Virus record (IMG/VR): IMGVR_UViG_3300045988_081755
Origin: a virus
Strand: one strand, 5' to 3'
Length of the DNA: 64,000 bases
Made by a program: the position numbers and the translations under genes. The notes below the pieces were generated by a model. The model was not told the DNA's origin and ran no database searches. It worked only from the letters and a program-made list of their open reading frames with translations. The stretch's first letter is position 1, and the number at the start of each line of letters is the position of its first letter. This document shows positions 12,682 through 64,000 of this stretch, piece by piece.

Positions 12682-15600
12682 TTAAGAAATTTTCCAGCTC
12701 GTATTCGTCGTTATCTTGAACGTTTGTGAACCACCCGTTGCGCCATAAGACAGGCTCGTTGGAGTGACTTCAAGATACAGAATCTTCGCTACCAGTGTTC
12801 TCGCACCTGTTACCGTGAACTGATAGGAGAGACTTGTGCTCACCCGTGTGCTGCCCTCGTACCATCCGTCAAACACGTCAGCACTATTGGTCTTGGTACA
12901 TACAACCGTTGCCGAAGCACCATAGTTATAAGACCCACCGCCAGATACTGAACCACGTCCCGCAGCCGAACTGTCAAGACTGACAGATATTGTATAGGAA
13001 CGAGTTGTTCTATTTCCTCGAGCCTCAACCGTAACATTTCCAGTAATAGTTCCTGGAGAATAAGTTACAGAGGTGGACACTCTGGTTGAACCATTGTACC
13101 ATCCGTCGAAGCTATAAGAATATTGAGCAGTAGTTGCCGGAAGCGATGCAGTAGAACCAGCAGCCGTACCACCATAAGAAACCGACTCGCTTGCACGACT
13201 CACAGAGGCAATATACGCATTCTTATTATAGGTGACAGTATAACTTCTCAGGCTTCTCGTTCCCTTCGCAGTGTACGTTGCATTAGCTGTTACACCAGTC
13301 GGAGCATAAGTTGCTGAAGATGTTATCTTAGTCGCTCCGTTATACCAACCATCAACCCCATAGGAGTATTGAGCAGTCGTAGCGGAAACAGTCATCGTTG
13401 AACCAGTAGCGTTGGCTCCGTGAGCAACACGTTCTGAAGTTCTACTCAGACTTGCGACATAATCACCAGCCGAATAAGTTATCGTATAATATTTCTTCGT
13501 GAAGCGAGCATATACGGTCATCGAGGCTGTTACACCTGAAATCGCATACGATGCTGAACTACTCAACAAAGAACCACCTGATGCACCAGCAGAATACCAA
13601 CCATCAAACTGATAACCAGCAGCAGCCGAAGCCGTGACAGTTATACTTCCTCCGTGATTTACACTTCCACCACCTGAAACTGTTCCACCCGTTGTTCCGG
13701 CTGTATAGTTTCCTGTGCCGTCTGTATTACGATAATACGCTGACGGGGAGACTGTATATGAGTTAATGGTCGCTTTCGCTGTAAGAGACAAATTAGACTT
13801 AACAGCCGTCGGAGCATACGTCAATGATGTTGAAACTCTGGTTGCGCCATTGTACCAACCGTCAAATGTATATCCCGCAGTGACTGTGGCTGTACAGCCA
13901 GTCGCATTAGCTCCCCAACTTACAACTTCAGAAGTCTTACTGATTGTGGCGATACCTGTTCCCTTGACATAAGTCACGGTATAAGTGTTCGTCGTATATT
14001 CAGCCGTATAAGTTGCATTCGCTGTAACAGTAATCTCACGAGAAGCAGTTGTTACACCATCAGACCACTTAGAGAATGTCTTTCCTTCTATCGTAGAAGC
14101 TGTCAGAGTAACCTTTGTTCCATAATCATAAGTTCCCCCACCAGAACCATTGTTCACGGTAATTGTGTACTTATTGACTGTGGCTGTTCCTCTGGCTTCG
14201 AAAGTTCTCGCAGCCGTAATGTTCGCAACGCTCAACGCAAGAGCCGTACCAACCTGAGTGCTTCCTTCGTACCATCCCGCAAACGTGTATGTATATTGGG
14301 CAGTATTAGCAGGAAGAGTCGCTGTACAGGTCGCAGTTCCACCGTAATTTACGGATTCACTCGTCTTACTGATAGAAGCGATATTCGCATTCTTTGTATA
14401 AGATACTGTATAGACGTTAATTGTCGCAGACGCTGTCAATGTACAGTTAGACTGAATTGCTGATAGAGTTGCCTTACCAGCTGAAACTGTCAATGTACCT
14501 GTTCCAGAAGTCTTCGTCCAAGTCGGAGTATTGTAACCAGTAGAAGCAACCGCAGTATCTGAAGTCACTGAACCATTATACGCTACTCGCTCAGTCGTCT
14601 TCGTCAGAGCATTTACACCTGTTCCCCTCACATAAGTCACAGTAAACCAATTCTTTTGGAATCGAGCATAAACTGTTACCGCAGCCGTCACACTTGCTAT
14701 CTCATAAGTCGCGGACGTGCTGATTTGTGTACCACCAGCGTCGTACCAACCTTGGAATGTATAACCTGCCTTCGCAGCAGCCGTTAAAGTCGCTTTAGAG
14801 CCATAGTTATATGTTCCCGAGCCTGTTACCGTACCGCCATTCGTTCCGCTCGTAAACGAGCCAGTAGAATCCGTATCACGGTATTGAGCCGTTCCTGTGA
14901 TTGCAAATGTTTTCAACACTCCCTTAGCAGTGAGCGTCATGTTTCCAGTAACGTTGGTTGGTCCATAAGTAAGAGCCGTGCTGACACGAGTATCACCGTT
15001 GTACCATCCATCGAAATTGTAACCTGTCACCAATGCCGCAGTAGAACCCTTCGCATTTGAACCGTGTTCAACTGTTTCACTCGCTGGAGTAACCGAAGCA
15101 ATTCCTGTGCCTTTCGCATACGTGATAACATAGGTATTGATTCCGAACGATGCAGCATAAGTTTCATTTGCCGTAACATTCGTGACGGTCAATTTAGCTG
15201 TCTTGGTTCCATCACTCCATCCACTGAACGTGTATCCTGTCGAAGCGGTTGCAGTTGAAGATGCTTCGCCACCATACTGTACTCGAGCCGATGTCGGCGA
15301 TACTGAACCACCTGTTCCGGCTGTGAATGTTACTGTAAACCATTGACGCTGGAACCGTGCTGTCAAGCTGCGAGCTCCTGTTGCGGTGAATGTATAGGAA
15401 GCGGAATCCGAAACTTTCGAATCGCCCTCATACCACCCAGCGAAACTGTACCCAGTTGCCGGAGTTGCTTTCGCAGTGACTGATGTTCCGTGATTGAAAG
15501 TTCCTCCTCCGGAAACAGTACCACCCGTCGTCCCTGATGTAAAGTCGCCCGATTCAGCCACACGAAATTGAGCAGCCAAATTGATAGCATAGCTCTTAAT

Positions 15601-16566
15601 CGTGAACACCGCTTGAATCGTGCGGTTCTTAGTAATCTCCCATCCAGGATACGGGTTCGTCGTTGATTCAACCCCCTCTTCATCAACCCATTTCGTAAAG
15701 TTGTAACCAGTAGCAGGGGTTGCAGTTGATTTAATGCTCGAACCATAGTCATAAGTTCCTCCTCCGGATACCGTTCCCGCACCTGTCGGGGTAATGGTAA
15801 ACGCAAGAGAATACCTGTTAAGCGTTCGAGAACCAATTGCTGTGAATGTTCTGTTTGCTGTTATATTTGCCACGCTCAATGACAACGACGAAGAAATCTT
15901 CGTGTCGCCCTCATACCATCCTAAGAATGAATATGAGTATTGAGCCGTATTCGCGAGCAGTGTTGCAACCGCAGTTGCGGTATTTCCCCAATTAATCTTC
16001 TCGGAAGTCTTATTAATCGTATTGATATAATCTCCTTTCGAATAGGTAACAGTCCAAGTCGAAGTTGCTTGAGTAACTGTTACCGTCCCAACGACAGAAG
16101 CGATTGAACCCGTAACAGTTATCTTCCCTGTACGTCTTCCAACCGTGTTCTTAGGAATGGGGATTTGGGCACTGAATATAAACTCATCAACGGCTCCTGG
16201 GTCATCAGGAATTGATGTCCCATTCACCGTCAATAAGCCATTCGCAGTATAATTAGCAGGCAAAACAATAGGGATATCATTCCCCGAACCAAGAGCGAAA
16301 GTAATCTTCGGTGAGTTGCTCTTTCCAGAAACAGTTATCGTCGAAGCTCCTTCGCCTACCTCAAATGAAGTCTTGTCCAAAGTAATGTATTCAGCAGTTG
16401 GCTCTTGCTTAACTTGGTAAGATTTTGCCGCTTCAATTCCTTTGACCACAGCCGTAACAACTGTCTGACGTTCAAGACGACCTTTATGTATCGTGCCTGA
16501 ATTGGTCAGAGTAGCGTCACCCTCTCCGGTCATTGGATTAACGGTCAACCAAGAATCTTTCGCCAT
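12682..16566 (-). CDS. giant virion surface repeat protein (Ig/BACON-like ends plus about 14 Listeria-Bacteroides/Flg_new-type repeats)
   Basis: 1294 aa. The signature Y-x-F-x-G-W-Y/W-S-D recurs about 14 times (FLGWYEGDTK, FAGWYEGDSK, FDGWYNGDTR, FSKWSDGVT and so on). The N-terminus is paralogous to 17672..18307 and the C-terminus to 16593..17129. Confidence 0.8.
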   Translation of the reverse strand: MAKDSWLTVNPMTGEGDATLTNSGTIHKGRLERQTVVTAVVKGIEAAKSYQVKQEPTAEYITLDKTSFEVGEGASTITVSGKSNSPKITFALGSGNDIPIVLPANYTANGLLTVNGTSIPDDPGAVDEFIFSAQIPIPKNTVGRRTGKITVTGSIASVVGTVTVTQATSTWTVTYSKGDYINTINKTSEKINWGNTATAVATLLANTAQYSYSFLGWYEGDTKISSSLSLSVANITANRTFTAIGSRTLNRYSLAFTITPTGAGTVSGGGTYDYGSSIKSTATPATGYNFTKWVDEEGVESTTNPYPGWEITKNRTIQAVFTIKSYAINLAAQFRVAESGDFTSGTTGGTVSGGGTFNHGTSVTAKATPATGYSFAGWYEGDSKVSDSASYTFTATGARSLTARFQRQWFTVTFTAGTGGSVSPTSARVQYGGEASSTATASTGYTFSGWSDGTKTAKLTVTNVTANETYAASFGINTYVITYAKGTGIASVTPASETVEHGSNAKGSTAALVTGYNFDGWYNGDTRVSTALTYGPTNVTGNMTLTAKGVLKTFAITGTAQYRDTDSTGSFTSGTNGGTVTGSGTYNYGSKATLTAAAKAGYTFQGWYDAGGTQISTSATYEIASVTAAVTVYARFQKNWFTVTYVRGTGVNALTKTTERVAYNGSVTSDTAVASTGYNTPTWTKTSGTGTLTVSAGKATLSAIQSNCTLTASATINVYTVSYTKNANIASISKTSESVNYGGTATCTATLPANTAQYTYTFAGWYEGSTQVGTALALSVANITAARTFEARGTATVNKYTITVNNGSGGGTYDYGTKVTLTASTIEGKTFSKWSDGVTTASREITVTANATYTAEYTTNTYTVTYVKGTGIATISKTSEVVSWGANATGCTATVTAGYTFDGWYNGATRVSTSLTYAPTAVKSNLSLTAKATINSYTVSPSAYYRNTDGTGNYTAGTTGGTVSGGGSVNHGGSITVTASAAAGYQFDGWYSAGASGGSLLSSSASYAISGVTASMTVYARFTKKYYTITYSAGDYVASLSRTSERVAHGANATGSTMTVSATTAQYSYGVDGWYNGATKITSSATYAPTGVTANATYTAKGTRSLRSYTVTYNKNAYIASVSRASESVSYGGTAAGSTASLPATTAQYSYSFDGWYNGSTRVSTSVTYSPGTITGNVTVEARGNRTTRSYTISVSLDSSAAGRGSVSGGGSYNYGASATVVCTKTNSADVFDGWYEGSTRVSTSLSYQFTVTGARTLVAKILYLEVTPTSLSYGATGGSQTFKITTNTSWKIS

Positions 16567-23866: not shown

Positions 23867-23904
23867 TTCCTATTTATTTTTAAAGTTATAATTCGATAAC
23901 GAAA

Positions 23905-24684
23905 TTATTTCACGAGACGAATGTTCTTCTTGTTATACATATACAAGGCTGCGTCTTGACCGATTGCCCCACATACAGGGTCGAGCAAATAGGCAGTTGT
24001 ATTGTCACGCAAAGACTTCTGAATTTCGGGGTCGGTTTCCTCATCGATTGATTTAGTAATCAATTCACGAACAACCGCACGGTCACGAGATACGCTCAGG
24101 ATGGTTTTGTCATCCTCGTCTTTCGCTCCACCGCCCATTTCGAGACTCTTTTCGATAACAGCCTTATTCAGACCAGCGGTCTTAAATGCAGGAGCAGTAT
24201 CGCCAAAAGCAATAATCGCTTGACGCATACCGTCCAAAGATTTTTCAATCTTGTCAACGACAGGAGTCAAAGCCTGTTCAATTACTCCGGGAAGAGATTT
24301 CATGAACTCATCCTGAGACTGAGTAACCTTGCCAAGCAAGTTGTCTTCGATGCTCTTCATGATATCCGCAGAAATTGACTTGGCGATGTCGTCTTTGTCT
24401 TTACCCTTGTCAGCACCGCAACCCTTTTCAACATCGTCTGGGTCTTTCTTGTCACCATCCTTGTCATCAGGGTCTTTCTTGTCTTTTTCTTTGTCCTTTT
24501 CTTTCTTCTCGTGTTCACCGTCTCCGTCGCCTTCACCATGGTCATCCGGACCACTCTGAACCGACTTCTCCAATTTGATTGAGCCGGAATCAATCCAACC
24601 AGCAATCACCTCTTCTGAGAACCCACTACCAAGCAGGGACTTAACGAGGTCGTCATTTTTCTGTTCATCTGTTAATTGTACCAT
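23905..24684 (-). CDS. scaffolding protein candidate
   Basis: 259 aa, highly acidic D/K/E low-complexity centre (GEGDGDGEHEKKEKDKEKDKKDPDDKDGDKKDPDD), between the protease and capsid genes. Confidence 0.6.
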   Translation of the reverse strand: MVQLTDEQKNDDLVKSLLGSGFSEEVIAGWIDSGSIKLEKSVQSGPDDHGEGDGDGEHEKKEKDKEKDKKDPDDKDGDKKDPDDVEKGCGADKGKDKDDIAKSISADIMKSIEDNLLGKVTQSQDEFMKSLPGVIEQALTPVVDKIEKSLDGMRQAIIAFGDTAPAFKTAGLNKAVIEKSLEMGGGAKDEDDKTILSVSRDRAVVRELITKSIDEETDPEIQKSLRDNTTAYLLDPVCGAIGQDAALYMYNKKNIRLVK

Positions 24685-25444: not shown

Positions 25445-25476
25445 CAAAATTACAAATCATTTCAGAAAGTTACAAA
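25445..25476 (-). promoter_or_regulatory. possible Bacteroides-type promoter upstream of the prohead protease gene
   Basis: Minus strand has TAATTTTG (-7) with TTTG 20 nt upstream. The spacing is one off the other copies. Confidence 0.35.
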
Positions 25477-26763
25477 TATTGGGTCACCAACATAATCGGT
25501 TCCTCTTTCATTCGCTGCCATAAATTCTTCATGAGGTGTCCGGACTTTCATCGGTCCCACCATCAAGGAATATTTCATTTCCTCGAGAAGACGTAACATA
25601 TCCGAGTCGTCGCCTGTAAACACAATTTCGCATTCAGTCAAGCGGTTGGTCGCTGGGTCTTCCTTATACCTTGTATCATGAATGATTAGAGGCTTCAAGA
25701 ACTTCAGATGTCCGTTCTCCCCAACTGTCACTTCCTGCATTCCGCTGATACCTTTAAGAATGGTTTCGACACACTTCATCGGGTCACGAACAGGAACAGC
25801 CAATTTTCGCTTGTCTCCGTCCATTGATTCAGGCTCAAGCGGTTTCACGGCTTCAATATCCATAGCCTTTTTCAGGATTGAAGTAAATCCCGGAACAAAA
25901 GCCTCCGGAGTAATGCGTCCTTCCTCAAGAGCTTTCAACAACGGTTGGGCGGCATCCATTTGCTGCGGTTTCATCATCAGGTCAAGAACGATACGTCCTT
26001 GGTCAAAGATGAACGGCTTCAAAGGCATTTCCCCAAGGTCAATGAACTCTGCAAAACAATGTTCGCTCGCATCAACTGTTACAGGCTGGTCACTGTCGAC
26101 ATACACCTGATAATATTTAATGTGGGCATCCGCATTCTTATGCTCCCCAAGATACACAATTCCTCTATCCGCAAGGGGGTCAAGATTTGTTTCTTCTTTT
26201 AGTTCACGTAATGCAGCGGTCTCAAAGTCCTCTCCTGGGTCGACATGACCTCCAGGGATACAAACCTTTCCAGTAGGACAGAACTCCTCAACTCGATGTA
26301 ATATGAGGACTCTACCAGACTTGTCCAAAGCAACCACATCAGCGTATTTGGTTGGCTCACCTGTAATTGACTTCACGATGTCGAAATACACCTGTTTAGT
26401 CATCTTCCCTTCCCGATACGCCAGCTCGGCATTATCAAGAGTGTCAATGTCTTTACAGGCTTCCCCAACCTCAGGGTCATTGCGATAAGCCTCCAACGAC
26501 TTCAGAATTTTGTTCCTCTGGTTTACGGCTGATGTAACTTCCTTTTGATGTTCTTTTAGGAATCCTCTATATTTCTCAAACACTTCGGATTTCTTCTGTT
26601 CCGGCAAACCATCAACTCCGTCAATTACTGACTTCTGAATTGAAAATTTATCGGACAGTTCTTGCCCAAGCAGGTCAAGTTTCCCGAGCTCCGATTTCAG
26701 ATTCCGGTAATCCTCAATTTTCTCTTGAGCTGTCTGAATACCAAAAAACTTCTTTAAATTCAT
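25462..26763 (-). CDS. Nudix hydrolase domain protein embedded in the head module
   Basis: 433 aa. Nudix box GGHVDPGEDFETAALRELKEETNL matches G-x5-E-x7-R-E-U-x-E-E-x-G-U except the last Gly. Flanked by ~150-aa N- and C-terminal extensions. Confidence 0.8.
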   Translation of the reverse strand: MNLKKFFGIQTAQEKIEDYRNLKSELGKLDLLGQELSDKFSIQKSVIDGVDGLPEQKKSEVFEKYRGFLKEHQKEVTSAVNQRNKILKSLEAYRNDPEVGEACKDIDTLDNAELAYREGKMTKQVYFDIVKSITGEPTKYADVVALDKSGRVLILHRVEEFCPTGKVCIPGGHVDPGEDFETAALRELKEETNLDPLADRGIVYLGEHKNADAHIKYYQVYVDSDQPVTVDASEHCFAEFIDLGEMPLKPFIFDQGRIVLDLMMKPQQMDAAQPLLKALEEGRITPEAFVPGFTSILKKAMDIEAVKPLEPESMDGDKRKLAVPVRDPMKCVETILKGISGMQEVTVGENGHLKFLKPLIIHDTRYKEDPATNRLTECEIVFTGDDSDMLRLLEEMKYSLMVGPMKVRTPHEEFMAANERGTDYVGDPIFVTF

Positions 26764-30411: not shown

Positions 30412-31839
30412 TTATTCCTTCTTTTGAGTCTCCTTACCACGGCTTTCCAATTCTCCCTTCACTTTCATTATAGAGTAAAGCAACTCCGCTCTTTGAGACT
30501 TCTTTATGGCTTCAAAGTTCTTGTTTAAATCATTCACAAGACCCTTCTCCATCTTCTTGAGGTTTTCCGTAGGAATGTTCTTAATGTTTGACCACTTCTC
30601 ATCAACACCCTTGCGAACCTTTTCTGACAGGTATTTCTTCAGATTGACCTTTCCGCTGTTAGGGACGTCCTCAAACTTGACACGGGTGTAAGACTCTTCG
30701 GTTTCACCTTGTTTTGATTCAGACTTTGAATCTTTAGAATTCCATTTATTTGCAAATTTATCCGCAGCCTTTGCAGCTTCATTTGGGGAGGAAAACAGTT
30801 TACTTTTCAAATCCTCTGCCTCTTTATGAAATTCTTCTGCTGCTTCAAAAGAAACTTTTGACGCTGAAACTGACGCTGAATATTCATACTTCTTGTCCTT
30901 CAGATTAGGAACAGCCTGGACAGCCATTGACTCTACCACACCATCTTCACCATATTTTTTCGTATCACTAAAAGAATTCCCCTCCCACCCAGAAAGACTC
31001 ACTCGTTCTTTTTGGGGTTCGGACTTCGATTCTTCCTTTGATTTGCGATTTTCTTGAATGAGCTTGTTTATTTCACTCCATGTATCCGCAATTTCTTTTG
31101 TAAGACGTTTTTCTTCATCAGACATTGGGGATTCAATATCAGGATTGGGGAACTTCTTTTTCTTTTCGGAAATGAGTCTTTCAACTTTTTCAGAAAGTTC
31201 TTTCCGTCTCTGAAGATTATCTACTTCTTCTTTCAACTTTTTTTTAATAGCAAAATCTGAAAATCCACCGATATGTTCAGCCAATGAACCATTAAATTTT
31301 CTTCCAGTAACTTTGTTAATCCAAACTCCAACTTTTTCCTTTTTAAAAGGACCATATCCACCCCCTGAAGCTTCGGCTCCAATAGGAGCTTCCTTTAGAA
31401 CTCTATCTGCCTTTTCATAGACAGATTCTTTTTGTTCAGATTCCTTCTTCTGGGCTTCGTTTATCTTCTTACTGGTTTCCTTGGCTTCCTCTGCGTTTTT
31501 CTTCTCTTCATTCGCCTTAACACCAGCATTAATCTTTTCAGCCTGTTTCTTCGCAGCCTCGAGTTTTTGTTTCTTCTCCGAAAGTTTCATCACTTCCGCA
31601 GCCGGAAGATTCAGTTTCCCCTCGTTGATAGCAGCGATAACCTTGTTTACAGCCTCGAGCTCCTTTGCAGGGTCAGTTTCCTTCTTCTCAGTCTTTTCGC
31701 CATCGTCGGACTGTTTCTCAGCACCATACTTCTGTCCGACACGATGTTTACGACGGTTCTCAGCGGTGTCTGAATAAACACCCGAACGAGATTTCATTAT
31801 TGTTCTTTCTGTCAATGTAACCATATTCTTTTCAACCAT
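30412..31839 (-). CDS. Lys/Glu-rich protein carrying one GVY-x-DT-x-EN-RR-x-x-RVGQ-x-Y motif
   Basis: 475 aa. N-terminus MKSRSGVYSDTAENRRKHRVGQKYG, then long charged helical regions. Has its own promoter cassette at 31854-31884. Confidence 0.65.
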   Translation of the reverse strand: MVEKNMVTLTERTIMKSRSGVYSDTAENRRKHRVGQKYGAEKQSDDGEKTEKKETDPAKELEAVNKVIAAINEGKLNLPAAEVMKLSEKKQKLEAAKKQAEKINAGVKANEEKKNAEEAKETSKKINEAQKKESEQKESVYEKADRVLKEAPIGAEASGGGYGPFKKEKVGVWINKVTGRKFNGSLAEHIGGFSDFAIKKKLKEEVDNLQRRKELSEKVERLISEKKKKFPNPDIESPMSDEEKRLTKEIADTWSEINKLIQENRKSKEESKSEPQKERVSLSGWEGNSFSDTKKYGEDGVVESMAVQAVPNLKDKKYEYSASVSASKVSFEAAEEFHKEAEDLKSKLFSSPNEAAKAADKFANKWNSKDSKSESKQGETEESYTRVKFEDVPNSGKVNLKKYLSEKVRKGVDEKWSNIKNIPTENLKKMEKGLVNDLNKNFEAIKKSQRAELLYSIMKVKGELESRGKETQKKE

Positions 31840-36302: not shown

Positions 36303-37391
36303 TTATGGTGTGATAGTTTGGTTTTCAGCTTTAAGAGTGAAAGTTGAAAAGTACCTAGAGTCGAATATATTTTGGCCACCCCGCTGAATGCGTACTGTAA
36401 TAGTGTCACCAGCTTTGGCTTGAACAGTTTCCATCCTGCTTCCTGGTTTACAAACTGTCAATCCGTTTGTATTATTCCACATAATTGAGGCATTTTCATA
36501 CCCAGAACCCATAGAATAATAATCATTTGGACCATACAATGGAATACCCGTTGAATTAAATAGATAAGCGGTTGCTCCTGTATAATTACGGAACTTAATT
36601 GTTAGGGTAAATCGGGAAACGACGGCTGCTTGCAACAGGGAGACTGCTTGGGTCTTACCACTACCAGTCTGCGTATAGGAAACAGAACCGCCTCTCGAAC
36701 CGCTTTGATTGGACGCAGCCGTAATAGATGTTCCATCCGTGTTCTTGCTGAACCCTGTTCCGCTAATCGTAGCCGTCCATGCAACATTTTCCTGGGTCGA
36801 TGTTTCGACTCCGTTTATAACTTTCTTTCGGTAGGAAATTACGGTAACGGATTTCGTTCCACCACCAGCGACGAAACTGAGCGATGTCGGAGTCACGGAG
36901 AAGTAATAGTTCCAAGTTACTACTCCCGCAGCCTGACTCAATGAAATAGAAGCTGTTTTCCCACTTGTCCCCTGTGTATAGGAAACAGAACCGCTTCTCG
37001 AACCGCTTTGATTGGACGCAGCCGTAATAGATGTTCCATCCGTGTTCTTGCTGAACCCTGTTCCGCTAATCGTAGCCGTCCATGCAACATTTTCCTGGGT
37101 CGATGTTTCGACTCCGTTTATAACTTTCTTTCGGTAGGAAATTACGGTAACGGATTTCGTTCCACCACCAGCGACGAAACTGAGCGATGTCGGAGTCACG
37201 GAGAAGTAATAGTTCCAAGTTACTACTCCCGCAGCCTGACTTGCGCCAACAGTACGTGTCATCCCGCCACCAGCGACTGAAAGGCTCGTACTGCGTGTGG
37301 ATTCTGTCTGGTTAGCAGACGCTGCGACAGTCACAGTTGTGCTACCACTTCCTCCGGAGTCCGGAGTTGCTGTAATAAAATCTTTCTTCAT
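36303..37391 (-). CDS. BACON/Ig-like repeat protein with switchable C-terminal domain (expressed locus)
   Basis: 362 aa. N-terminus MKKDFITATPDSGGSGSTTVTV, two near-identical 101-aa repeats, then ...GKTQAVSLLQAAVV followed by a ~105-aa unique C-terminal domain. Promoter TAAATTTG at 37431-37438. Confidence 0.8.
   Translation of the reverse strand: MKKDFITATPDSGGSGSTTVTVAASANQTESTRSTSLSVAGGGMTRTVGASQAAGVVTWNYYFSVTPTSLSFVAGGGTKSVTVISYRKKVINGVETSTQENVAWTATISGTGFSKNTDGTSITAASNQSGSRSGSVSYTQGTSGKTASISLSQAAGVVTWNYYFSVTPTSLSFVAGGGTKSVTVISYRKKVINGVETSTQENVAWTATISGTGFSKNTDGTSITAASNQSGSRGGSVSYTQTGSGKTQAVSLLQAAVVSRFTLTIKFRNYTGATAYLFNSTGIPLYGPNDYYSMGSGYENASIMWNNTNGLTVCKPGSRMETVQAKAGDTITVRIQRGGQNIFDSRYFSTFTLKAENQTITP
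36619..36654 (-). repeat. crossover site inside the expressed gene
   Basis: Minus strand reads GACCCAAGCAGTCTCCCTGTTGCAAGCAGCCGTCGT, which matches 37984-38019 on the plus strand at 34 of 36 positions. Confidence 0.7.
36669..37241 (-). repeat. 303-bp in-frame tandem duplication inside gene 36303..37391
   Basis: 36669-36938 and 36972-37241 are identical except for 2 mismatches (offset 303 nt = 101 aa). The ~33-bp junctions between the copies diverge. Confidence 0.9.
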
Positions 37392-39383: not shown

Positions 39384-39438
39384 CAAAGATAGTGGAAAGA
39401 AATGAGACTGCAAAGAAAATCCCGGAATTTCTTCCGGG
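39384..39438 (-). promoter_or_regulatory. terminator hairpin + promoter cassette
   Basis: Hairpin CCCGGAA-gaaa-TTCCGGG (39421-39438), TTTG (39411-39414), 19-nt spacer, TATCTTTG (39384-39391). 45 bp (39406-39450) are identical to 44082-44126. Confidence 0.7.
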
Positions 39439-39460
39439 AAATCTTTGAGAGGATTGATTT

Positions 39461-40128
39461 TTATGTGAAATCGAACTCGGCTACACAAACATATTCTCCC
39501 TGATACTGAGGGTCTCCAAGATATAATCGAATGTACTGAAGAGCGTGTGAAGCGGGAGTGAATTGCTTTCCGGCAGACATTCTAAAATAATGTGCAGTAA
39601 AGCCAGGAATTCCAGGGTTCTCGGGGTCACTTTGAACTTTGTCATAATATGACTTGGTTCCAGCTCCAGGAATATCTTTATACAAAGTTTCCATGTAAAC
39701 GCCATTATTAAATGGCTCCTCCCATATATTTTCGATACTGTCTGAAAGCAATAACGCTCCTCTTGTTACCCAATAAGTATCGGACATTTCAGACACGGAA
39801 GGAATCTGTGCATTCATTTTAACTGAAAGATATGAAACTTCTCTTTCGTAACCATTGTCGTTTATTTCTGACTTTACAGAAAAACCCGTTGCGTTGAACG
39901 AAAAAGTAACATTTCCATTCCATTTATCAGCAATTGAAGTTAAACCCACAACGGGCATGAGCGGAATTCCGTTTTGGTCAACGGTTACAAGGCGAGATAC
40001 CCCCCCCAGCGGAGAAGTTCAAAGTTGTGGAGCGAGCAGAAAAGGTTGGATTTGGGTCAGCAGATACGCTTACTTGAGCCGTACCCCCCCCCCGAATCGG
40101 GAGTGATTGTAAGAAAATCTTTTTTCAT
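39461..40128 (-). CDS. BACON-like paralog interrupted by two poly-G tracts (phase-variable candidate, out of frame as assembled)
   Basis: The ATG at 40128 gives MKKDFLTITPDSGGG, then a stop. With G9 instead of G10 the frame reads GTAQVSVSADPNPTFSARSTTLNFSAGGG. With G7 instead of G8 at the second tract it joins track ORF 39461..39958. Confidence 0.6.
40010..40017 (-). repeat. poly-G tract (G8 on coding strand), second tract of gene 39461..40128
   Basis: Run of 8 C on the plus strand. In-frame lengths would be 7 or 10. Confidence 0.95.
40084..40093 (-). repeat. poly-G tract (G10 on coding strand), codons 12-15 of gene 39461..40128
   Basis: Run of 10 C on the plus strand. In-frame lengths would be 9, 6 or 12. 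Confidence 0.95.
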
Positions 40129-40140
40129 GATTCTTTAATT
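40086..40140 (-). repeat. 55-nt identical 5' end shared with 63946-64000
   Basis: CCCCCCCCGAATCGGGAGTGATTGTAAGAAAATCTTTTTTCATGATTCTTTAATT occurs at both loci. It covers 12 nt upstream of the ATG, codons 1-12 and the start of the G tract. Identity ends at the tract. Confidence 0.95.
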
Positions 40141-40254
40141 TTAAATTCAACGAAATTATTTATGCTATTGACGTCAATTATAGCCGATTTAAGAGGTTAA
40201 AAGTATGCCCCGAACAAATTATCCGGAGCACACCTTTGATTATCGCTTAGAGCC

Positions 40255-42964: not shown

Positions 42965-43729
42965 CTACTTTTTAGGGTTCATATTCAAAATCTTTGCTTT
43001 CGGTTGTGGCTCTGGACGCTGTTCAGGTTCTTTCGGGCATTCCCACAGTTGAGGAACATAGGTGAAGCGAGCCTTCGGGTCGGGCGAAGCCTGTTGCAAG
43101 AAAGCCACTTTCTCCATCGCCTCGCTCTCTTTGAGAGCCTCTAAGAGATTATCGTCCGTGTCCTTAACAACTTCACCAGAGTGCATATCAATCACCTTAA
43201 ACAGAGGCTCAGGGAGCTCCATGTTAGTGAACTCTGTAACGTCGAGATAATCACAGCCAAAGTTCTCAGCCGTTTTCAGGTCGCTGTCGCTGAACTGTCC
43301 TTCCAGACCAGAGGCGTCACCTATCATTAGGCACTCTTCCTTGCTGATTTCCAACCCTGTATTCTCACAGAATTCTTTCAGCATATTCTCAAGCATTCCT
43401 GGGTTCGGTTTACGGTCAGGACATTCCTTAGCATTGTAGGGACAGAACTGCCCAGCGACAAGTGTATTCAAGCCGATGAACGACTGAAGAGATGCGATGA
43501 CGTAAATGAATTTCGGTTGAAACATAGCTGGGTGAACATGACCCATTTCAATTCCACCCTGATTAGATACGATGAGAACAGCCTGTGGATGAAGTTTCTT
43601 GAGCTGCGCAAAAACCTCCATTTTCAGTTTCATGTCCCAGACTCCTTCCGGGAACGTTTTTCCGGATTCGGTATCGATGAGCGTACCGTCCAAGTCGATG
43701 AAGATAACTTTCTTCTTTGTAATGTCCAT
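42965..43729 (-). CDS. HAD-superfamily phosphatase, polynucleotide 3'-phosphatase-like
   Basis: 254 aa. Motif I FIDLDGTLI, motif II VSNQGG, motif III RKPNPGM, motif IV IGDASGLEGQFSDSDLKTAENFGCDY, as in DNA 3'-phosphatase-type HAD enzymes. Pro/Glu-rich tail. Confidence 0.7.
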   Translation of the reverse strand: MDITKKKVIFIDLDGTLIDTESGKTFPEGVWDMKLKMEVFAQLKKLHPQAVLIVSNQGGIEMGHVHPAMFQPKFIYVIASLQSFIGLNTLVAGQFCPYNAKECPDRKPNPGMLENMLKEFCENTGLEISKEECLMIGDASGLEGQFSDSDLKTAENFGCDYLDVTEFTNMELPEPLFKVIDMHSGEVVKDTDDNLLEALKESEAMEKVAFLQQASPDPKARFTYVPQLWECPKEPEQRPEPQPKAKILNMNPKK

Positions 43730-44024: not shown

Positions 44025-44059
44025 GACTTTACTGTTTTTTTTTTAATTGATTTACACAA

Positions 44060-45345: not shown

Positions 45346-45682
45346 TTTGTTTTTCTTTATTAGTTGCTTTCTTTGGTTGCTCTTCAGGATAGTGAAGCTC
45401 TTTCTCAATTGATTTACTTTCGTAATCAATGAATTCTTTCTTCTTCCGAAGGCTCATTTCCATAGCCTGTTGAATAGCTGGGCGAACGAACTTGTCAAAG
45501 GCTTCCCCGTCAAGGAAGGCTTCGAATCCGTGGTTGCCACCAAGCGTCGTAATGTTTACGAAACAACCGCTTCCCATCAGGGAGCCACGCTTCCAGTCTT
45601 TCTTCCAAGCTCTCAACTTGGCGAGTAGCGAAGCCGTCGTTTGGGCTGTCGTTTCTTTGAGTTTCCTTTCAAATTTATTCAT
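45314..45682 (-). CDS. hypothetical protein
   Basis: 122-aa ORF, 8-nt overlap with the upstream gene. Confidence 0.55.
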   Translation of the reverse strand: MNKFERKLKETTAQTTASLLAKLRAWKKDWKRGSLMGSGCFVNITTLGGNHGFEAFLDGEAFDKFVRPAIQQAMEMSLRKKKEFIDYESKSIEKELHYPEEQPKKATNKEKQNEKVNSTVAS

Positions 45683-46427
45683 CTTTCTTTCCTTTATTGT
45701 TTACACCGTACCCAAATAGAGCGAAATCACATTTACACGGGTCTAACGGATAGACCTCGCGACAGTTAGTAGTGAGCTCAAGCACTGTATTCATGCTATC
45801 GCCTTTACCCTTTATGAGACCCAATTGACGACCAACGTTTGCGACGTGAGTGTCAAGCGGAATCATCAACCATGATGGAGGGATTAAACTCCAGATTCCT
45901 AAATCAACCGGACTGTTCTTTCTCACCATCCAGCGCAAAAACATATTTAGACGCTTGCAAGCCGACTTCGTGTCCTGGGGGATACCTTTCACTCCAGGGA
46001 ACAGGGTTATCAGCGCATAAAGATAATCTGTGGCGCAGCCGGAACGACAATACGCTTTGGATACAGCCTCTTCCATGTCCTCATTCTCATCGTAGATTTT
46101 CTTGAGTGCCTTACATAGTTCAGCGAAGTCGCCCCACTTGAAGAAGCGGTACATGGTTTCTTCTGAACCAACGTACTTCCTCCAGACCATATTCTTGATA
46201 TACATATAGGGAGTATATCGTTCCATGTCAGCGAACAGGCTCTCACAGGTTGAGAGGATTGCCTTTCGGTTCCCATACGCTAACCACGCAGCGATGAACC
46301 CTACTATTTCCTGAGAACATTTGTAACCAAACTTCCGAGGGAACTGTACAGGGTCGTCAGCTACGAATTCCGGCTTCTCGTACTGTTCAGCCAGCTTCAT
46401 AATCAGATGTCTTGTTTTTGTTTCCAT
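45675..46427 (-). CDS. TIGR02757/DUF2400-like protein (HhH base-excision-glycosylase-like fold)
   Basis: 250 aa. DDPVQFPRKFGYKCSQEIVGFIAAWLAYGNRKAIL and IPLDTHVANVGRQLGLI (helix-hairpin-helix-like) match my recollection of this family. Confidence 0.6.
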   Translation of the reverse strand: METKTRHLIMKLAEQYEKPEFVADDPVQFPRKFGYKCSQEIVGFIAAWLAYGNRKAILSTCESLFADMERYTPYMYIKNMVWRKYVGSEETMYRFFKWGDFAELCKALKKIYDENEDMEEAVSKAYCRSGCATDYLYALITLFPGVKGIPQDTKSACKRLNMFLRWMVRKNSPVDLGIWSLIPPSWLMIPLDTHVANVGRQLGLIKGKGDSMNTVLELTTNCREVYPLDPCKCDFALFGYGVNNKGKKDE

Positions 46428-60307: not shown

Positions 60308-60919
60308 TTAATGTTTCTCAATATCCTCGTACGCACGCAAGGCAACCAGCTCAATTAAATCCTTTTTTGCCTTGTGCATAGCGTTCTTGACCTGCTGTAC
60401 GGTGAAGTCCAGCTCATCGGCTATTTCTTCGTAGGAGAAGTCATCAAAGAACTTCATCTGTAACACCCGTCGTGATACTTCAGGCATTTCATTCATGACT
60501 GTCCTAACGAATTCCAAACGCTGTTTGAACGACATTGCTTCTTCCGGTGTACGGCTGTCATCTATTACTTGTAACGTAGGTCGTTCATCCTCGGTATCGT
60601 CGAACCCTTCATCGATGCTAACGATGTTCACTCTGTTACGCTTACGACAGTAATCTATCGCACAGTTCCTTCCGATACGTACTAACCAAGCACTCAGTTG
60701 ATAGTCCGGCTGGAAGTTCTTTAACCGCTGAAAAGCCTTTTCAAAGGTTTCCATTACGATGTCGGCTGTAAGGTCGCTATCGTTTACGATATCAGATATC
60801 TGAATAGTCAAGATAATTCTGTATTTCTTGAAGATTGCTGAATAGGCTTCCTGGTCGCCACATAAGGCTCTTTGAACCAAAAAGAAGTCCTTCTCTTTTG
60901 ATGATAATTTAGGTCTCAT
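60308..60919 (-). CDS. sigma-70 family (ECF-like) RNA polymerase sigma factor
   Basis: 203 aa. Region 2-like YSAIFKKYRIILTIQ...ADIVMETFEKAFQRLKNFQPDYQLSAWLVRIGRNCAIDYCRKR and region 4 HTH-like RVLQMKFFDDFSYEEIADELDFTVQQVKNAMHKAKKDL. Confidence 0.85.
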   Translation of the reverse strand: MRPKLSSKEKDFFLVQRALCGDQEAYSAIFKKYRIILTIQISDIVNDSDLTADIVMETFEKAFQRLKNFQPDYQLSAWLVRIGRNCAIDYCRKRNRVNIVSIDEGFDDTEDERPTLQVIDDSRTPEEAMSFKQRLEFVRTVMNEMPEVSRRVLQMKFFDDFSYEEIADELDFTVQQVKNAMHKAKKDLIELVALRAYEDIEKH

Positions 60920-62919: not shown

Positions 62920-63405
62920 ATGATTAAGACTGGTTTAACCGCAGAAGAGCTCGAACGTAGTGCTCTCTTGCTTAATGGTTTGCTTGCCGACCACTTCACG
63001 CTGTTGCTGAAGACATGGCAGTTTCACTGGAACGTCGTAGGAGACTCATTTGGTTCCTATCACGAAGGGATGCTGAAACTTTATGAAGCCGAAATTGAAC
63101 GTGTTGATGATGTTGCTGAACGTATCCGTGCGCTCGGAAAACGTCCGTTGGGTTCTATGGAAGCTATGTTACAGAACAACCACATTCAGGAGTTTAAGAT
63201 GGATGAAAGAGTTCCTCAGGCAATTGATATGTGGAAAATCATTCGTGACGACTGGGATAGGATGATACGTTCAATTCGTGACATTCACAAACAAATCCCT
63301 CAGAACGACCTCGCCACTCTGAACTTCCTTGAGGACATGATTGAAAGCATGGAAAAGGAAGCGTGGATGAATCGTTCCTACAATGTTACTCCCGAGGGAG
63401 AGTAA
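62920..63405 (+). CDS. dps: Dps-family (DNA protection during starvation / ferritin-like) protein
   Basis: 161 aa. LNGLLADHFTLLLKTWQFHWNVVGDSFGSYHEGMLKLYEAEIERVDDVAERIRALGKRP follows the Dps consensus, including the ferroxidase His/Asp/Glu positions. Lone plus-strand gene, with hairpin terminator 63426-63448. Confidence 0.9.
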   Translation: MIKTGLTAEELERSALLLNGLLADHFTLLLKTWQFHWNVVGDSFGSYHEGMLKLYEAEIERVDDVAERIRALGKRPLGSMEAMLQNNHIQEFKMDERVPQAIDMWKIIRDDWDRMIRSIRDIHKQIPQNDLATLNFLEDMIESMEKEAWMNRSYNVTPEGE

Positions 63406-63425: not shown

Positions 63426-63448
63426 AGGGGAGCCTCATCAGCTCCCCT
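63426..63448. terminator. bidirectional terminator between dps and the poly-G gene
   Basis: AGGGGAGC-ctcatca-GCTCCCCT followed by TTCTTTTT. It sits between convergent stops. Confidence 0.7.
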
Positions 63449-63454
63449 TTCTTT

Positions 63455-63988
63455 TTAATTATACAAATGAAAAGTTCCAGTTGCGGAACCACCTGCTCCC
63501 ATATATTCAACCTTTATATCGTAATAACAAGAAACTGAAGACGGTGCTCCAGATTTCTTTGCAAACTGAACCCGAGTCCCATATTGGCTGGTATTAGTGA
63601 CATCATAATACGAAGTATTCGTAGGAGTAACTGTCACCCGTGTATTTCCATCTTTGCTGAAATCTTCTGATATCAGAGTATCTCCTTCATAAACAGCTTT
63701 TCGCAAACGAAATTCTGGTGTGACGAATGGGGCTGCGAAATTTGCCTCAATAGTCCCAGAAGGAGTTATCCACCCTTTACTTGTCCCAGCGAAGCTGTCA
63801 AAATTATATTGCAACTCAGTCACATATCTTCTTCCTGCGCTTTGAGCTACATTAATGGTTCGAGTGATACCCCCCCCTGAATGGTTATCGTAGAGGAACG
63901 AGCATTACCAGTGTTTGCGGGAACCGCAACGGTCACTTCCTGTGACCCCCCCCGAATCGGGAGTGATTGTAAGAAAATCTTTTTTCAT
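63455..63988 (-). CDS. BACON-like paralog interrupted by two poly-G tracts (phase-variable candidate, out of frame as assembled)
   Basis: The ATG at 63988 gives MKKDFLTITPDSGGV... and stops early. G7 or G10 at the first tract gives GSQEVTVAVPANTGNARSSTITIQGG. G6 or G9 at the second tract joins GGITRTINVAQSAGRRYV to track ORF 63455..63823, which starts at a GTG. Confidence 0.6.
63870..63877 (-). repeat. poly-G tract (G8), second tract of gene 63455..63988
   Basis: Run of 8 C on the plus strand. In-frame lengths would be 6 or 9. Confidence 0.95.
63946..63953 (-). repeat. poly-G tract (G8), first tract of gene 63455..63988
   Basis: Run of 8 C on the plus strand. In-frame lengths would be 7 or 10. 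Confidence 0.95.
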
Positions 63989-64000
63989 GATTCTTTAATT

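Follow-up and report, generated by a model that had tools for sequence, protein, structure and literature searches.

A 64,000-nucleotide (nt) stretch of viral DNA (IMG/VR record IMGVR_UViG_3300045988_081755), referred to here in its full length as the window, carries near its end a short minus-strand gene (gene 2; 63455..63988) that contains two runs of guanine. Probably these runs are hypermutable poly-G contingency tracts placed on the conserved glycine motifs of a BACON domain, and the allele in the window is OFF at both, each run being of a length that closes the full reading frame. The ATG of gene 2 (63988-63986) is preceded by a 12-nt 5' leader, aattaaagaatc (63989..64000), which is clipped by the window end, and opens MKKDFLTITPDSGG; the start codon and the MKKDFLTITPDS codons (63954..63988) specify the first BACON strand in frame 0 and lead directly into poly-G tract 1, a G8 at 63946..63953 that codes the Gly-Gly of a PDSGG motif. 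The inter-tract segment (63878..63945), SQEVTVAVPANTGNARSSTITIQ, represents the BACON core and is read in the +1 frame, with stops in both other frames. Poly-G tract 2, also a G8 (63870..63877), codes the GG(G) preceding ITRTINV, and beyond it the original frame resumes with GGGITRTINVAQSAG and continues through the last BACON strand (ITRTINVAQSAG) and a β-rich orphan C-terminal domain of ~125 amino acids (aa) to the TAA stop codon (63457-63455), the whole of this last part occupying 63455..63869.

The N-terminal 14 and the C-terminal 140 codons of gene 2 thus share one frame, while the 22-23 codons between the tracts, which are spaced 68 nt apart, lie in the +1 frame. As assembled, the gene is translated as MKKDFLTITPDSGGVTGSDRCGSRKHW and meets a stop after 27 codons. 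Enumeration of tract lengths yields an open frame of 176-179 aa only where tract 1 is 7 or 10 nt and tract 2 is 6 or 9 nt long, which bears out the positions of the two G8 runs and the required lengths given in a first-pass annotation of this DNA. The corrected protein string proposed there also agrees with the 177-aa protein obtained when both tracts are set in frame, although the domain it called Ig-like is more precisely a BACON domain. Gene callers report the gene as a 122-aa open reading frame (ORF) at 63455..63823, and this exact C-terminal product is present in 7 further samples.

The corrected gene 2 protein matches the Pfam family BACON (PF13004) at 31.7 bits over residues 3-49, a span that includes both tracts, and the corrected product of a paralog in the window (gene 1; 39461..40128, minus strand) matches the same family at 37.7 bits over residues 3-51, the Pfam gathering cut-off being 25 bits. 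A score above this cut-off is obtained only in the corrected reading and, with both tracts lying inside the match, the reading in three frames represents genuine coding sequence. Homologs in the ON state carry a precomputed PF13004 match. Gene 1 bears a G10 (40084-40093) that is in frame at 6 or 9 nt and a G8 (40000-40007) that is in frame at 7 or 10 nt, and it too is OFF at both tracts. It had been pointed out earlier that all four tracts of the two genes lie one nucleotide away from an in-frame length; this is true but uninformative, since any length that is out of frame lies one nucleotide away from one that is in frame.

The lengths of these tracts were compared over 83 related loci, some of them on the same contig, from IMG/VR, ENA gut metagenomes and Logan assemblies, which were gathered through the conserved 5' sequence, the corrected protein, the neighbouring Dps gene, an inter-tract 26-mer and look-up of the exact product. 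Among the first 67 loci, the lengths of G/C runs follow a distribution with a second mode (385 G5, 30 G6, 28 G7, 7 G8, 26 G9, 28 G10, 3 G11 and 1 G14), and 66 of the 68 distinct tracts of seven or more G sit at the two glycine motifs of BACON genes with an MKKDF-type start. Rather than uniform in-frame lengths or homogeneity across isolates, which the first-pass annotation had named as observations that would speak against switching, abundant heterogeneity was found, with tracts of 6 to 14 nt between identical flanks; a single pair of constant 30-mers encloses tracts of 7, 8, 9, 9, 10, 10 and 11. Written as tract 1/tract 2, the loci that share the inter-tract sequence of the window read 6/7 in L004, 7/7 in L075, L077 and L080, 8/8 in the window, L078 and L079, 9/9 in L072, 9/10 in L005, 8/10 in L070, 10/10 in L076, 10/8 in L081 and 10/7 in L082, and tract 2 of the gene 2 orthologs ranges from 7 to 10, with interrupted variants in addition. 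The inter-tract sequence is identical in L004, L005, L070, L072, L075 and L076. Between gene 2 orthologs that are at least 99% identical (no more than 5 differences per ~490 nt outside the tracts), tract 1 differs in seven of eight pairs and tract 2 in six of eight, so that the tracts change far faster than the sequence surrounding them.

The reading frame behaves as though it were free to drift at the long runs and fixed elsewhere. Frame offsets of 0, +1 and +2 occur 15, 15 and 17 times at tract 1 and 8, 16 and 7 times at tract 2. In a refined census, pure runs of at least 7 nt were in frame in 18 of 74 instances (24%), a proportion not different from one third, whereas runs of 5 nt or fewer, or interrupted runs, were in frame in 16 of 17 (94%; Fisher p = 1e-7 against the long runs). 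Whole genes were ON in 3 of 32 cases with two tracts, where 1/9 is expected, and in 6 of 17 with one tract, where 1/3 is expected. To judge from these counts, the pattern is what unconstrained, rapidly mutating tracts would give. Both alternative frames of the inter-tract segment are closed by stops in 14 of 14 distinct segments, and OFF is therefore really OFF. Tract-length changes alone restored 49 of the 52 tract-bearing genes of the refined census; the remaining 3 have one extra frameshift each at a short homopolymer outside the G tracts, located at position 1397 of the plus strand in L009, 5391 of the minus strand in L029 and 5343 of the minus strand in L045 (C4 to C5, T5 to T6 and T3 to T2, respectively), and these represent either real decay or assembly errors.

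A further observation concerns three proteins of the lineage typified by locus L006 (P0006, P0007 and P0012), the ORFs of which pass through both tracts in compensating wrong frames and yield full-length products with a scrambled middle of 25 aa. A scrambled core was considered as a general feature of the family and rejected, as the 14 of 14 closed segments stand against 3.0 and 2.6 open frames expected for the two alternatives, and the segment in the window is closed too. Such scrambled ORFs are probably rare variants.

Alleles in the ON state do exist. L072, with tracts of 9/9, is an ON allele of gene 2, and full-length ON forms occur in the protein collection as P0001, P0002, P0003, P0004, P0166 and P0167, which answers in the affirmative the earlier query as to whether the gene is intact in related genomes. 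P0001 is 97% identical to the corrected protein of the window; its AlphaFold2 model, built on a 12-sequence alignment, is poor, with a mean predicted local distance difference test score of 52.7 and no strands in residues 1-55. One full-length form is labelled 'Putative binding domain, N-terminal [Herelleviridae sp.]' in NCBI third-party annotation. The ON forms carry GG, GGG or GGGG at the glycine motifs, amounting to a polymorphism of in-frame lengths. Within the L006-type lineage, a 149-aa fragment derived from an OFF allele (P0163) is found on 280 contigs, while the ON forms P0166 and P0167 are found on 32 and 6, roughly the 1/9 expected to be ON. The C-terminal domain shows a ratio of nonsynonymous to synonymous substitution (dN/dS) of 0.11-0.15 against diverged orthologs, with dS of 0.26-2.1, a range indicating that the coding sequence of gene 2 is under purifying selection.

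These results bear directly on the possibility that the genes are decaying, functionless BACON relics that have been frameshifted at mutation-prone runs. Most alleles are indeed OFF, the three relatives noted above have a lesion outside their G tracts, and neither PHROG nor searches for homologs of the C-terminal domain provided a functional assignment, all as would be expected of a pseudogene. A neutral relic would, however, gather stops and lose its tracts, whereas lineages with Dps proteins 76-100% identical to that of the window have kept the tracts at the same pair of motifs; the lesions are confined to the tracts in all other tract-bearing genes, ON alleles are common, and the low dN/dS is not that of a relic. 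Decay is thus a highly improbable explanation.

A different alternative accepts that the protein is made and proposes that slippage of RNA polymerase on the G runs, or a ribosomal shift, expresses the gene from any DNA state, with tract length left to drift freely. In bacteria and viruses, transcription slips on long homopolymers, and leaky decoding would also be expected to combine a random DNA frame with a protein under purifying selection. The efficient cases documented in bacteria, however, involve mainly A/T runs of at least 9 nt, and two successive corrections would be needed here, with a yield equal to the product of two slippage efficiencies. There is neither a fixed offset nor a conserved slippery or stimulatory element at the tracts, and orthologs with identical flanks need shifts of 0, +1 or +2. 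For the same reason a programmed ribosomal frameshift was rejected as a candidate: the identical-flank orthologs show all three offsets at both tracts, and random offsets in the long tracts exclude a frameshift of fixed size. Moreover, interrupted tracts, counted together with the short runs, have a locked frame in 16 of 17 instances, so that frame matters at the level of DNA. Recoding in place of DNA switching is accordingly unlikely, and transcriptional slippage may add some leakiness atop the latter.

The tracts also stand out against the base composition of the window itself. The four tracts of genes 1 and 2 are its only G/C runs of at least 7 nt; there are no C6 or C7 runs and two G6 runs. 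The pattern GGGGGGGG has 6 matches in the window, 4 of them the tracts, against 0.71 expected, and none of 100 dinucleotide-preserving shuffles reached 6. A run of eight A (A8; 31238-31245) has left the 475-aa ORF that contains it (30412..31839) intact, and the long ORFs are unbroken across the window; hence there is no sign of general homopolymer error. This matters for the proposal that the gene is in frame everywhere and that the odd lengths are homopolymer miscalls introduced during sequencing or assembly. Long runs of G are prone to error, three of the window's four tracts exceed an in-frame length by one, equal tract lengths within an assembly are what a per-dataset bias would give, and an error model also predicts that short or interrupted tracts will nearly always be in frame. 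On the other hand, one and the same bias could not bring all four tracts back into frame, as the correction that tract 2 of gene 2 needs is of another size than that needed by the other three, and the A8 run mentioned above remained intact within its ORF. Random frame at the long runs would require a consensus error rate of about 70%, and the range of 6-14 nt on identical flanks recurs in independent assemblies, including ENA contigs with SPAdes-style NODE names that suggest Illumina data. The ON alleles differ from one another by whole codons, which argues that the length polymorphism is real, and even with one wrong length call the tracts and their site specificity would stand. An artefact is therefore considered quite improbable. 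The first-pass annotation had left stochastic switching and systematic homopolymer error side by side, and the length variation, random frame, ON alleles and purifying selection described here together favour the former.

Several observations weigh against contingency switching or limit how far it may be generalized. The lengths of tracts 1 and 2 are equal in 9 of 15 gene 2 orthologs, which is above independence, and correlate with r = 0.38 (p = 0.06) over 26 two-tract genes; this counts against switching because such equality would also result from a technical bias that affects G runs throughout one data set. Shared descent, a per-sample mutational bias and a technical bias of that kind are all possible sources of the excess, and a table of frame offsets at the two tracts of one gene revealed no clear association (n = 26). 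With 36 cases versus 20 and 18, the +1 offset is somewhat in excess. Many of the loci come from IMG/VR data set 3300045988 and related strains, so that the counts given above are not independent, and the 8/8 of the window is an assembly consensus call that could be off by one. No PHROG family match was found for the gene 2 protein, and its C-terminal domain is an orphan for which an exhaustive HMMER search gave 7 matches, only two of them close family members and the other five low-complexity or unrelated proteins. Finally, a more distant relative, MT835500.1, with a capsid protein 58% identical to that of the window, displays neither a G run of at least 7 nt nor an MKKDF-type start in the 50 of its 55.5 kb examined, and the feature is therefore lineage-restricted.

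Genes 1 and 2 belong to a small set of paralogous cassettes. The two proteins can be aligned only over residues 1-52, where they are 54% identical, and their C-terminal parts are unrelated in sequence, as the first-pass annotation had stated. The alternative binding specificities that it proposed on this ground are conjectural. A third paralog of 362 aa (36303..37391, minus strand; MKKDFITATPDSGGSGSTTV...) shares the N-terminus and both glycine motifs with genes 1 and 2; it is tract-free and constitutively in frame, its glycine motifs being spelled GGA GGA and GGT GGC GGG. These mixed codons indicate that the protein sequence does not dictate a homopolymer. Its scores of 24 bits for BACON and 21.6 bits for BACON_2 both lie slightly below the 25-bit cut-off. 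Each of the two tract-bearing genes is a self-contained unit with its own terminator-like hairpin, located at 39420-39439 for gene 1 and at 63426..63448 for gene 2. The latter, a GC hairpin with T runs on both sides, is common to gene 2 and the convergent Dps/ferritin-like gene on the plus strand (62920..63405), for which it would serve as a bidirectional terminator. Near-identical BACON modules are also joined to unrelated C-termini in P0015, P0017, P0019 and P0060.

The 5' end of gene 2, comprising the 12-nt leader and 35 coding nt (63954-64000), is nucleotide-identical to that of gene 1 (40094-40140), while all other gene 2 orthologs begin differently (ATGCAAAAAGA...CCAGACTCT). Because of this match, the gene 2 of the window has the look of a chimera joined at poly-G tract 1, and the event appears to have altered the in-frame requirement of that tract from 6 or 9 to 7 or 10. 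A promoter-like 12-mer, AATAATTTCGTT (40149..40160, minus strand), is found 21 nt upstream of the gene 1 ATG and is a consensus-type observation. It has exactly two copies in the window, the second of which (23898-23909, minus strand) lies 32 nt upstream of the start of the major capsid gene, and it is also present upstream of gene 1 and gene 2 orthologs on other contigs. The element may be a shared late promoter that would provide for late co-expression of the cassettes with the capsid, and its sharing with the capsid gene is the one hint that the encoded proteins may belong to the virion.

Taken as contingency tracts, the two runs would operate through slipped-strand mispairing during replication of the phage DNA, by which G residues are added or removed. 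The gene would move randomly among its frame states and be fully translated only when both tracts are in frame, in about one state out of nine; in any other state, translation would end within ~25 codons of the offending tract. On this model the allele of the window is OFF/OFF, with 8/8 instead of 7 or 10 at tract 1 and 6 or 9 at tract 2. As the phage carries several cassettes with the same leader and BACON module and differing C-terminal domains, in addition to the tract-free paralog, a population would probably be mixed, with genotypes that differ in which of the accessory proteins they make. The outcome could be a form of bet-hedging against variable Bacteroides surfaces or mucosal glycans. 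By analogy with known phage proteins, it is plausible that gene 2-type products serve as binding modules whose display is stochastic; they probably bind glycans and are possibly associated with the virion.

A more elaborate scheme, offered tentatively and regarded as more doubtful than the switch itself, would have the cassettes work in combination. In this scheme each genome would have several cassettes, built in the order shared leader/promoter, G tract, BACON core, G tract and variable C-terminal module. These would switch independently, those with two tracts being ON about 1/9 of the time, and would be expressed together with the capsid through a shared promoter motif, so as to furnish virions with varying glycan-binding modules. 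The tracts would at the same time be sites of recombination at which paralogs exchange leaders and C-terminal modules. Shuffling at tract 1 is proposed because the gene 2 of the window carries the 5' end of gene 1 up to that point. Were all of this to hold, which seems the lesser chance, it would concern an abundant human-gut phage lineage in which every burst would give differing virions.

The window as a whole is that of a phage, with genes for a portal, a major capsid protein (PHROG 752), baseplate J, NUDIX and Dps proteins and a 1294-aa protein of Listeria-Bacteroides repeats, and this phage is of the human-gut Bacteroidota type and myovirus-like. Its capsid protein shares 35% identity with the capsid proteins of phages DAC19-23 of Bacteroides thetaiotaomicron and 95% with that of an unannotated human-faecal contig. 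A blastn search of 50,697 GenBank phage records gave no DNA match to the gene 1 and gene 2 loci, tblastn gave none to the corrected gene 2 protein in the same collection, and the tract-free paralog matches only uncultured gut phages there, and these partially; no cultured relative with the cassette is therefore known from these records. Dps genes have been described in gut Bacteroides phages (Benler et al. 2021; PMC8008677). Other features, all on the minus strand, include the 1294-aa protein (12682-16566), which bears at least 8 Listeria-Bacteroides/InlB B-repeat domains, a NUDIX-domain protein encoded between the portal and capsid genes (25462-26763), a PNK3P/HAD phosphatase (42965-43729), a DUF2400 protein (45675-46427) and a 203-aa sigma factor of the extracytoplasmic function type (60308-60919) with Pfam domains Sigma70_r2 and Sigma70_r4_2. 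In orthologous contigs, the region upstream of gene 2, which would lie past position 64000, where the window stops, contains a gene for a GroEL-like chaperonin (Cpn60_TCP1, 538 aa; L077, 2052-3668), one for a DUF4494 protein and a 492-aa ORF.

A T10 run at 44035-44044, which reads A10 on the coding strand, precedes by 10 nt the ATG of a minus-strand ORF that starts at ~44024, and no length-variable counterpart of it was seen among the related loci. A/T homopolymers in general did not present themselves as further switches, since runs of at least 8 nt are sporadic and not recurrent.

The significance of such a switch lies in both the proteins and the phages concerned. Phage-encoded poly-G phase variation is documented in very few systems, and here it would occur in uncultured gut-phage genomes on hundreds of public assembly contigs. 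According to current proposals, gut phages are tethered to mucus and epithelium by proteins of the BACON-domain class, and if switching is real within populations, gut phage populations would be phenotypically mixed for them. Gene callers and domain surveys would then systematically miss or truncate these genes, because ~8/9 of two-tract alleles look broken, and the ON/OFF state would become a variable for studies of phage adherence and host range. The parallel with the capsule phase variation of Bacteroides hosts is concrete and testable.

Among published accounts, one reports that gut phages adhere to mucus or epithelium by means of BACON and other Ig-like proteins (PMC13370021; Nat Commun 2026). 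The proteins described here resemble those of that study and of an earlier one (de Jonge et al. 2019; PMC6949934) in having an N-terminal BACON module and in belonging to gut Bacteroidota-type phages, and differ from them in being short, with a single BACON domain and orphan C-terminal domains. The terms frameshift, homopolymer, poly-G and slippage do not appear in the study of phage BACON evolution (PMC6949934); the adherence study (PMC13370021) mentions a frameshift only for an engineered T7-like display system, and its supplements contain none of the protein or DNA strings of the gene. Literature searches found no published report of poly-G phase variation in BACON genes or in gut phages.

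Switches of related kinds are known from several other settings. Diversity-generating retroelements and invertible tail-fibre segments (as cited in PMC12823448) similarly provide phage-encoded diversification of binding proteins within a population; unlike these systems, the present one would switch ON and OFF by insertion and deletion, with no reverse transcriptase and template repeats and no invertase. The poly-G/C contingency loci of bacteria such as Campylobacter jejuni and Neisseria (PMC4965091; PMC8355987) share with the BACON genes a G/C homopolymer of at least 7 nt within an ORF, ON/OFF control by frameshift, over-representation of the runs, and targets with surface or binding functions. 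In contrast to these, the locus is viral, such that switching would occur in phage replication and selection would act on virions and infections rather than on cells. In the contingency loci of coliphages T2 and T4 (Gomez, Barrick and Waters; bioRxiv 10.1101/2025.10.21.683753), homopolymer slippage likewise leads to reversible frameshift diversity in phage populations. Theirs are mostly short runs (at least 6 nt) of the A/T type spread over many gene classes, whereas here long G runs are found in one gene family and at two conserved codon positions.

The closest parallel is provided by the Fletchervirus phages of Campylobacter, in which poly-G tracts of 7-11 nt are described in receptor-binding protein genes (Sorensen et al. 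2021, Cell Rep 35:109214, as cited in PMC12823448 and bioRxiv 10.1101/2025.10.21.683753). In both systems a phage-encoded intragenic G run, the length of which shifts the frame of a putative binding protein, is found in several genes per genome, and in both the proposed benefit is bet-hedging against a host with phase-variable surface structures. No homology to the Fletchervirus receptor-binding proteins was detected via PHROG or by tblastn and blastn against the 50,697 GenBank phage records, so the likeness is in mechanism only. The two further differ in phage lineage and host phylum, the present one being of the gut Bacteroidota type, and in the protein affected, which is here a small BACON-domain accessory protein; usually two tracts bracket one domain core, which predicts ~1/9 ON, and the system is known from comparison of sequences alone. 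The kind of switch is thus already known from the poly-G genes of Fletchervirus, and what sets the present case apart is its setting in a gut phage, in the BACON family, with two tracts at glycine motifs and with cassettes that are accompanied by a tract-free paralog.

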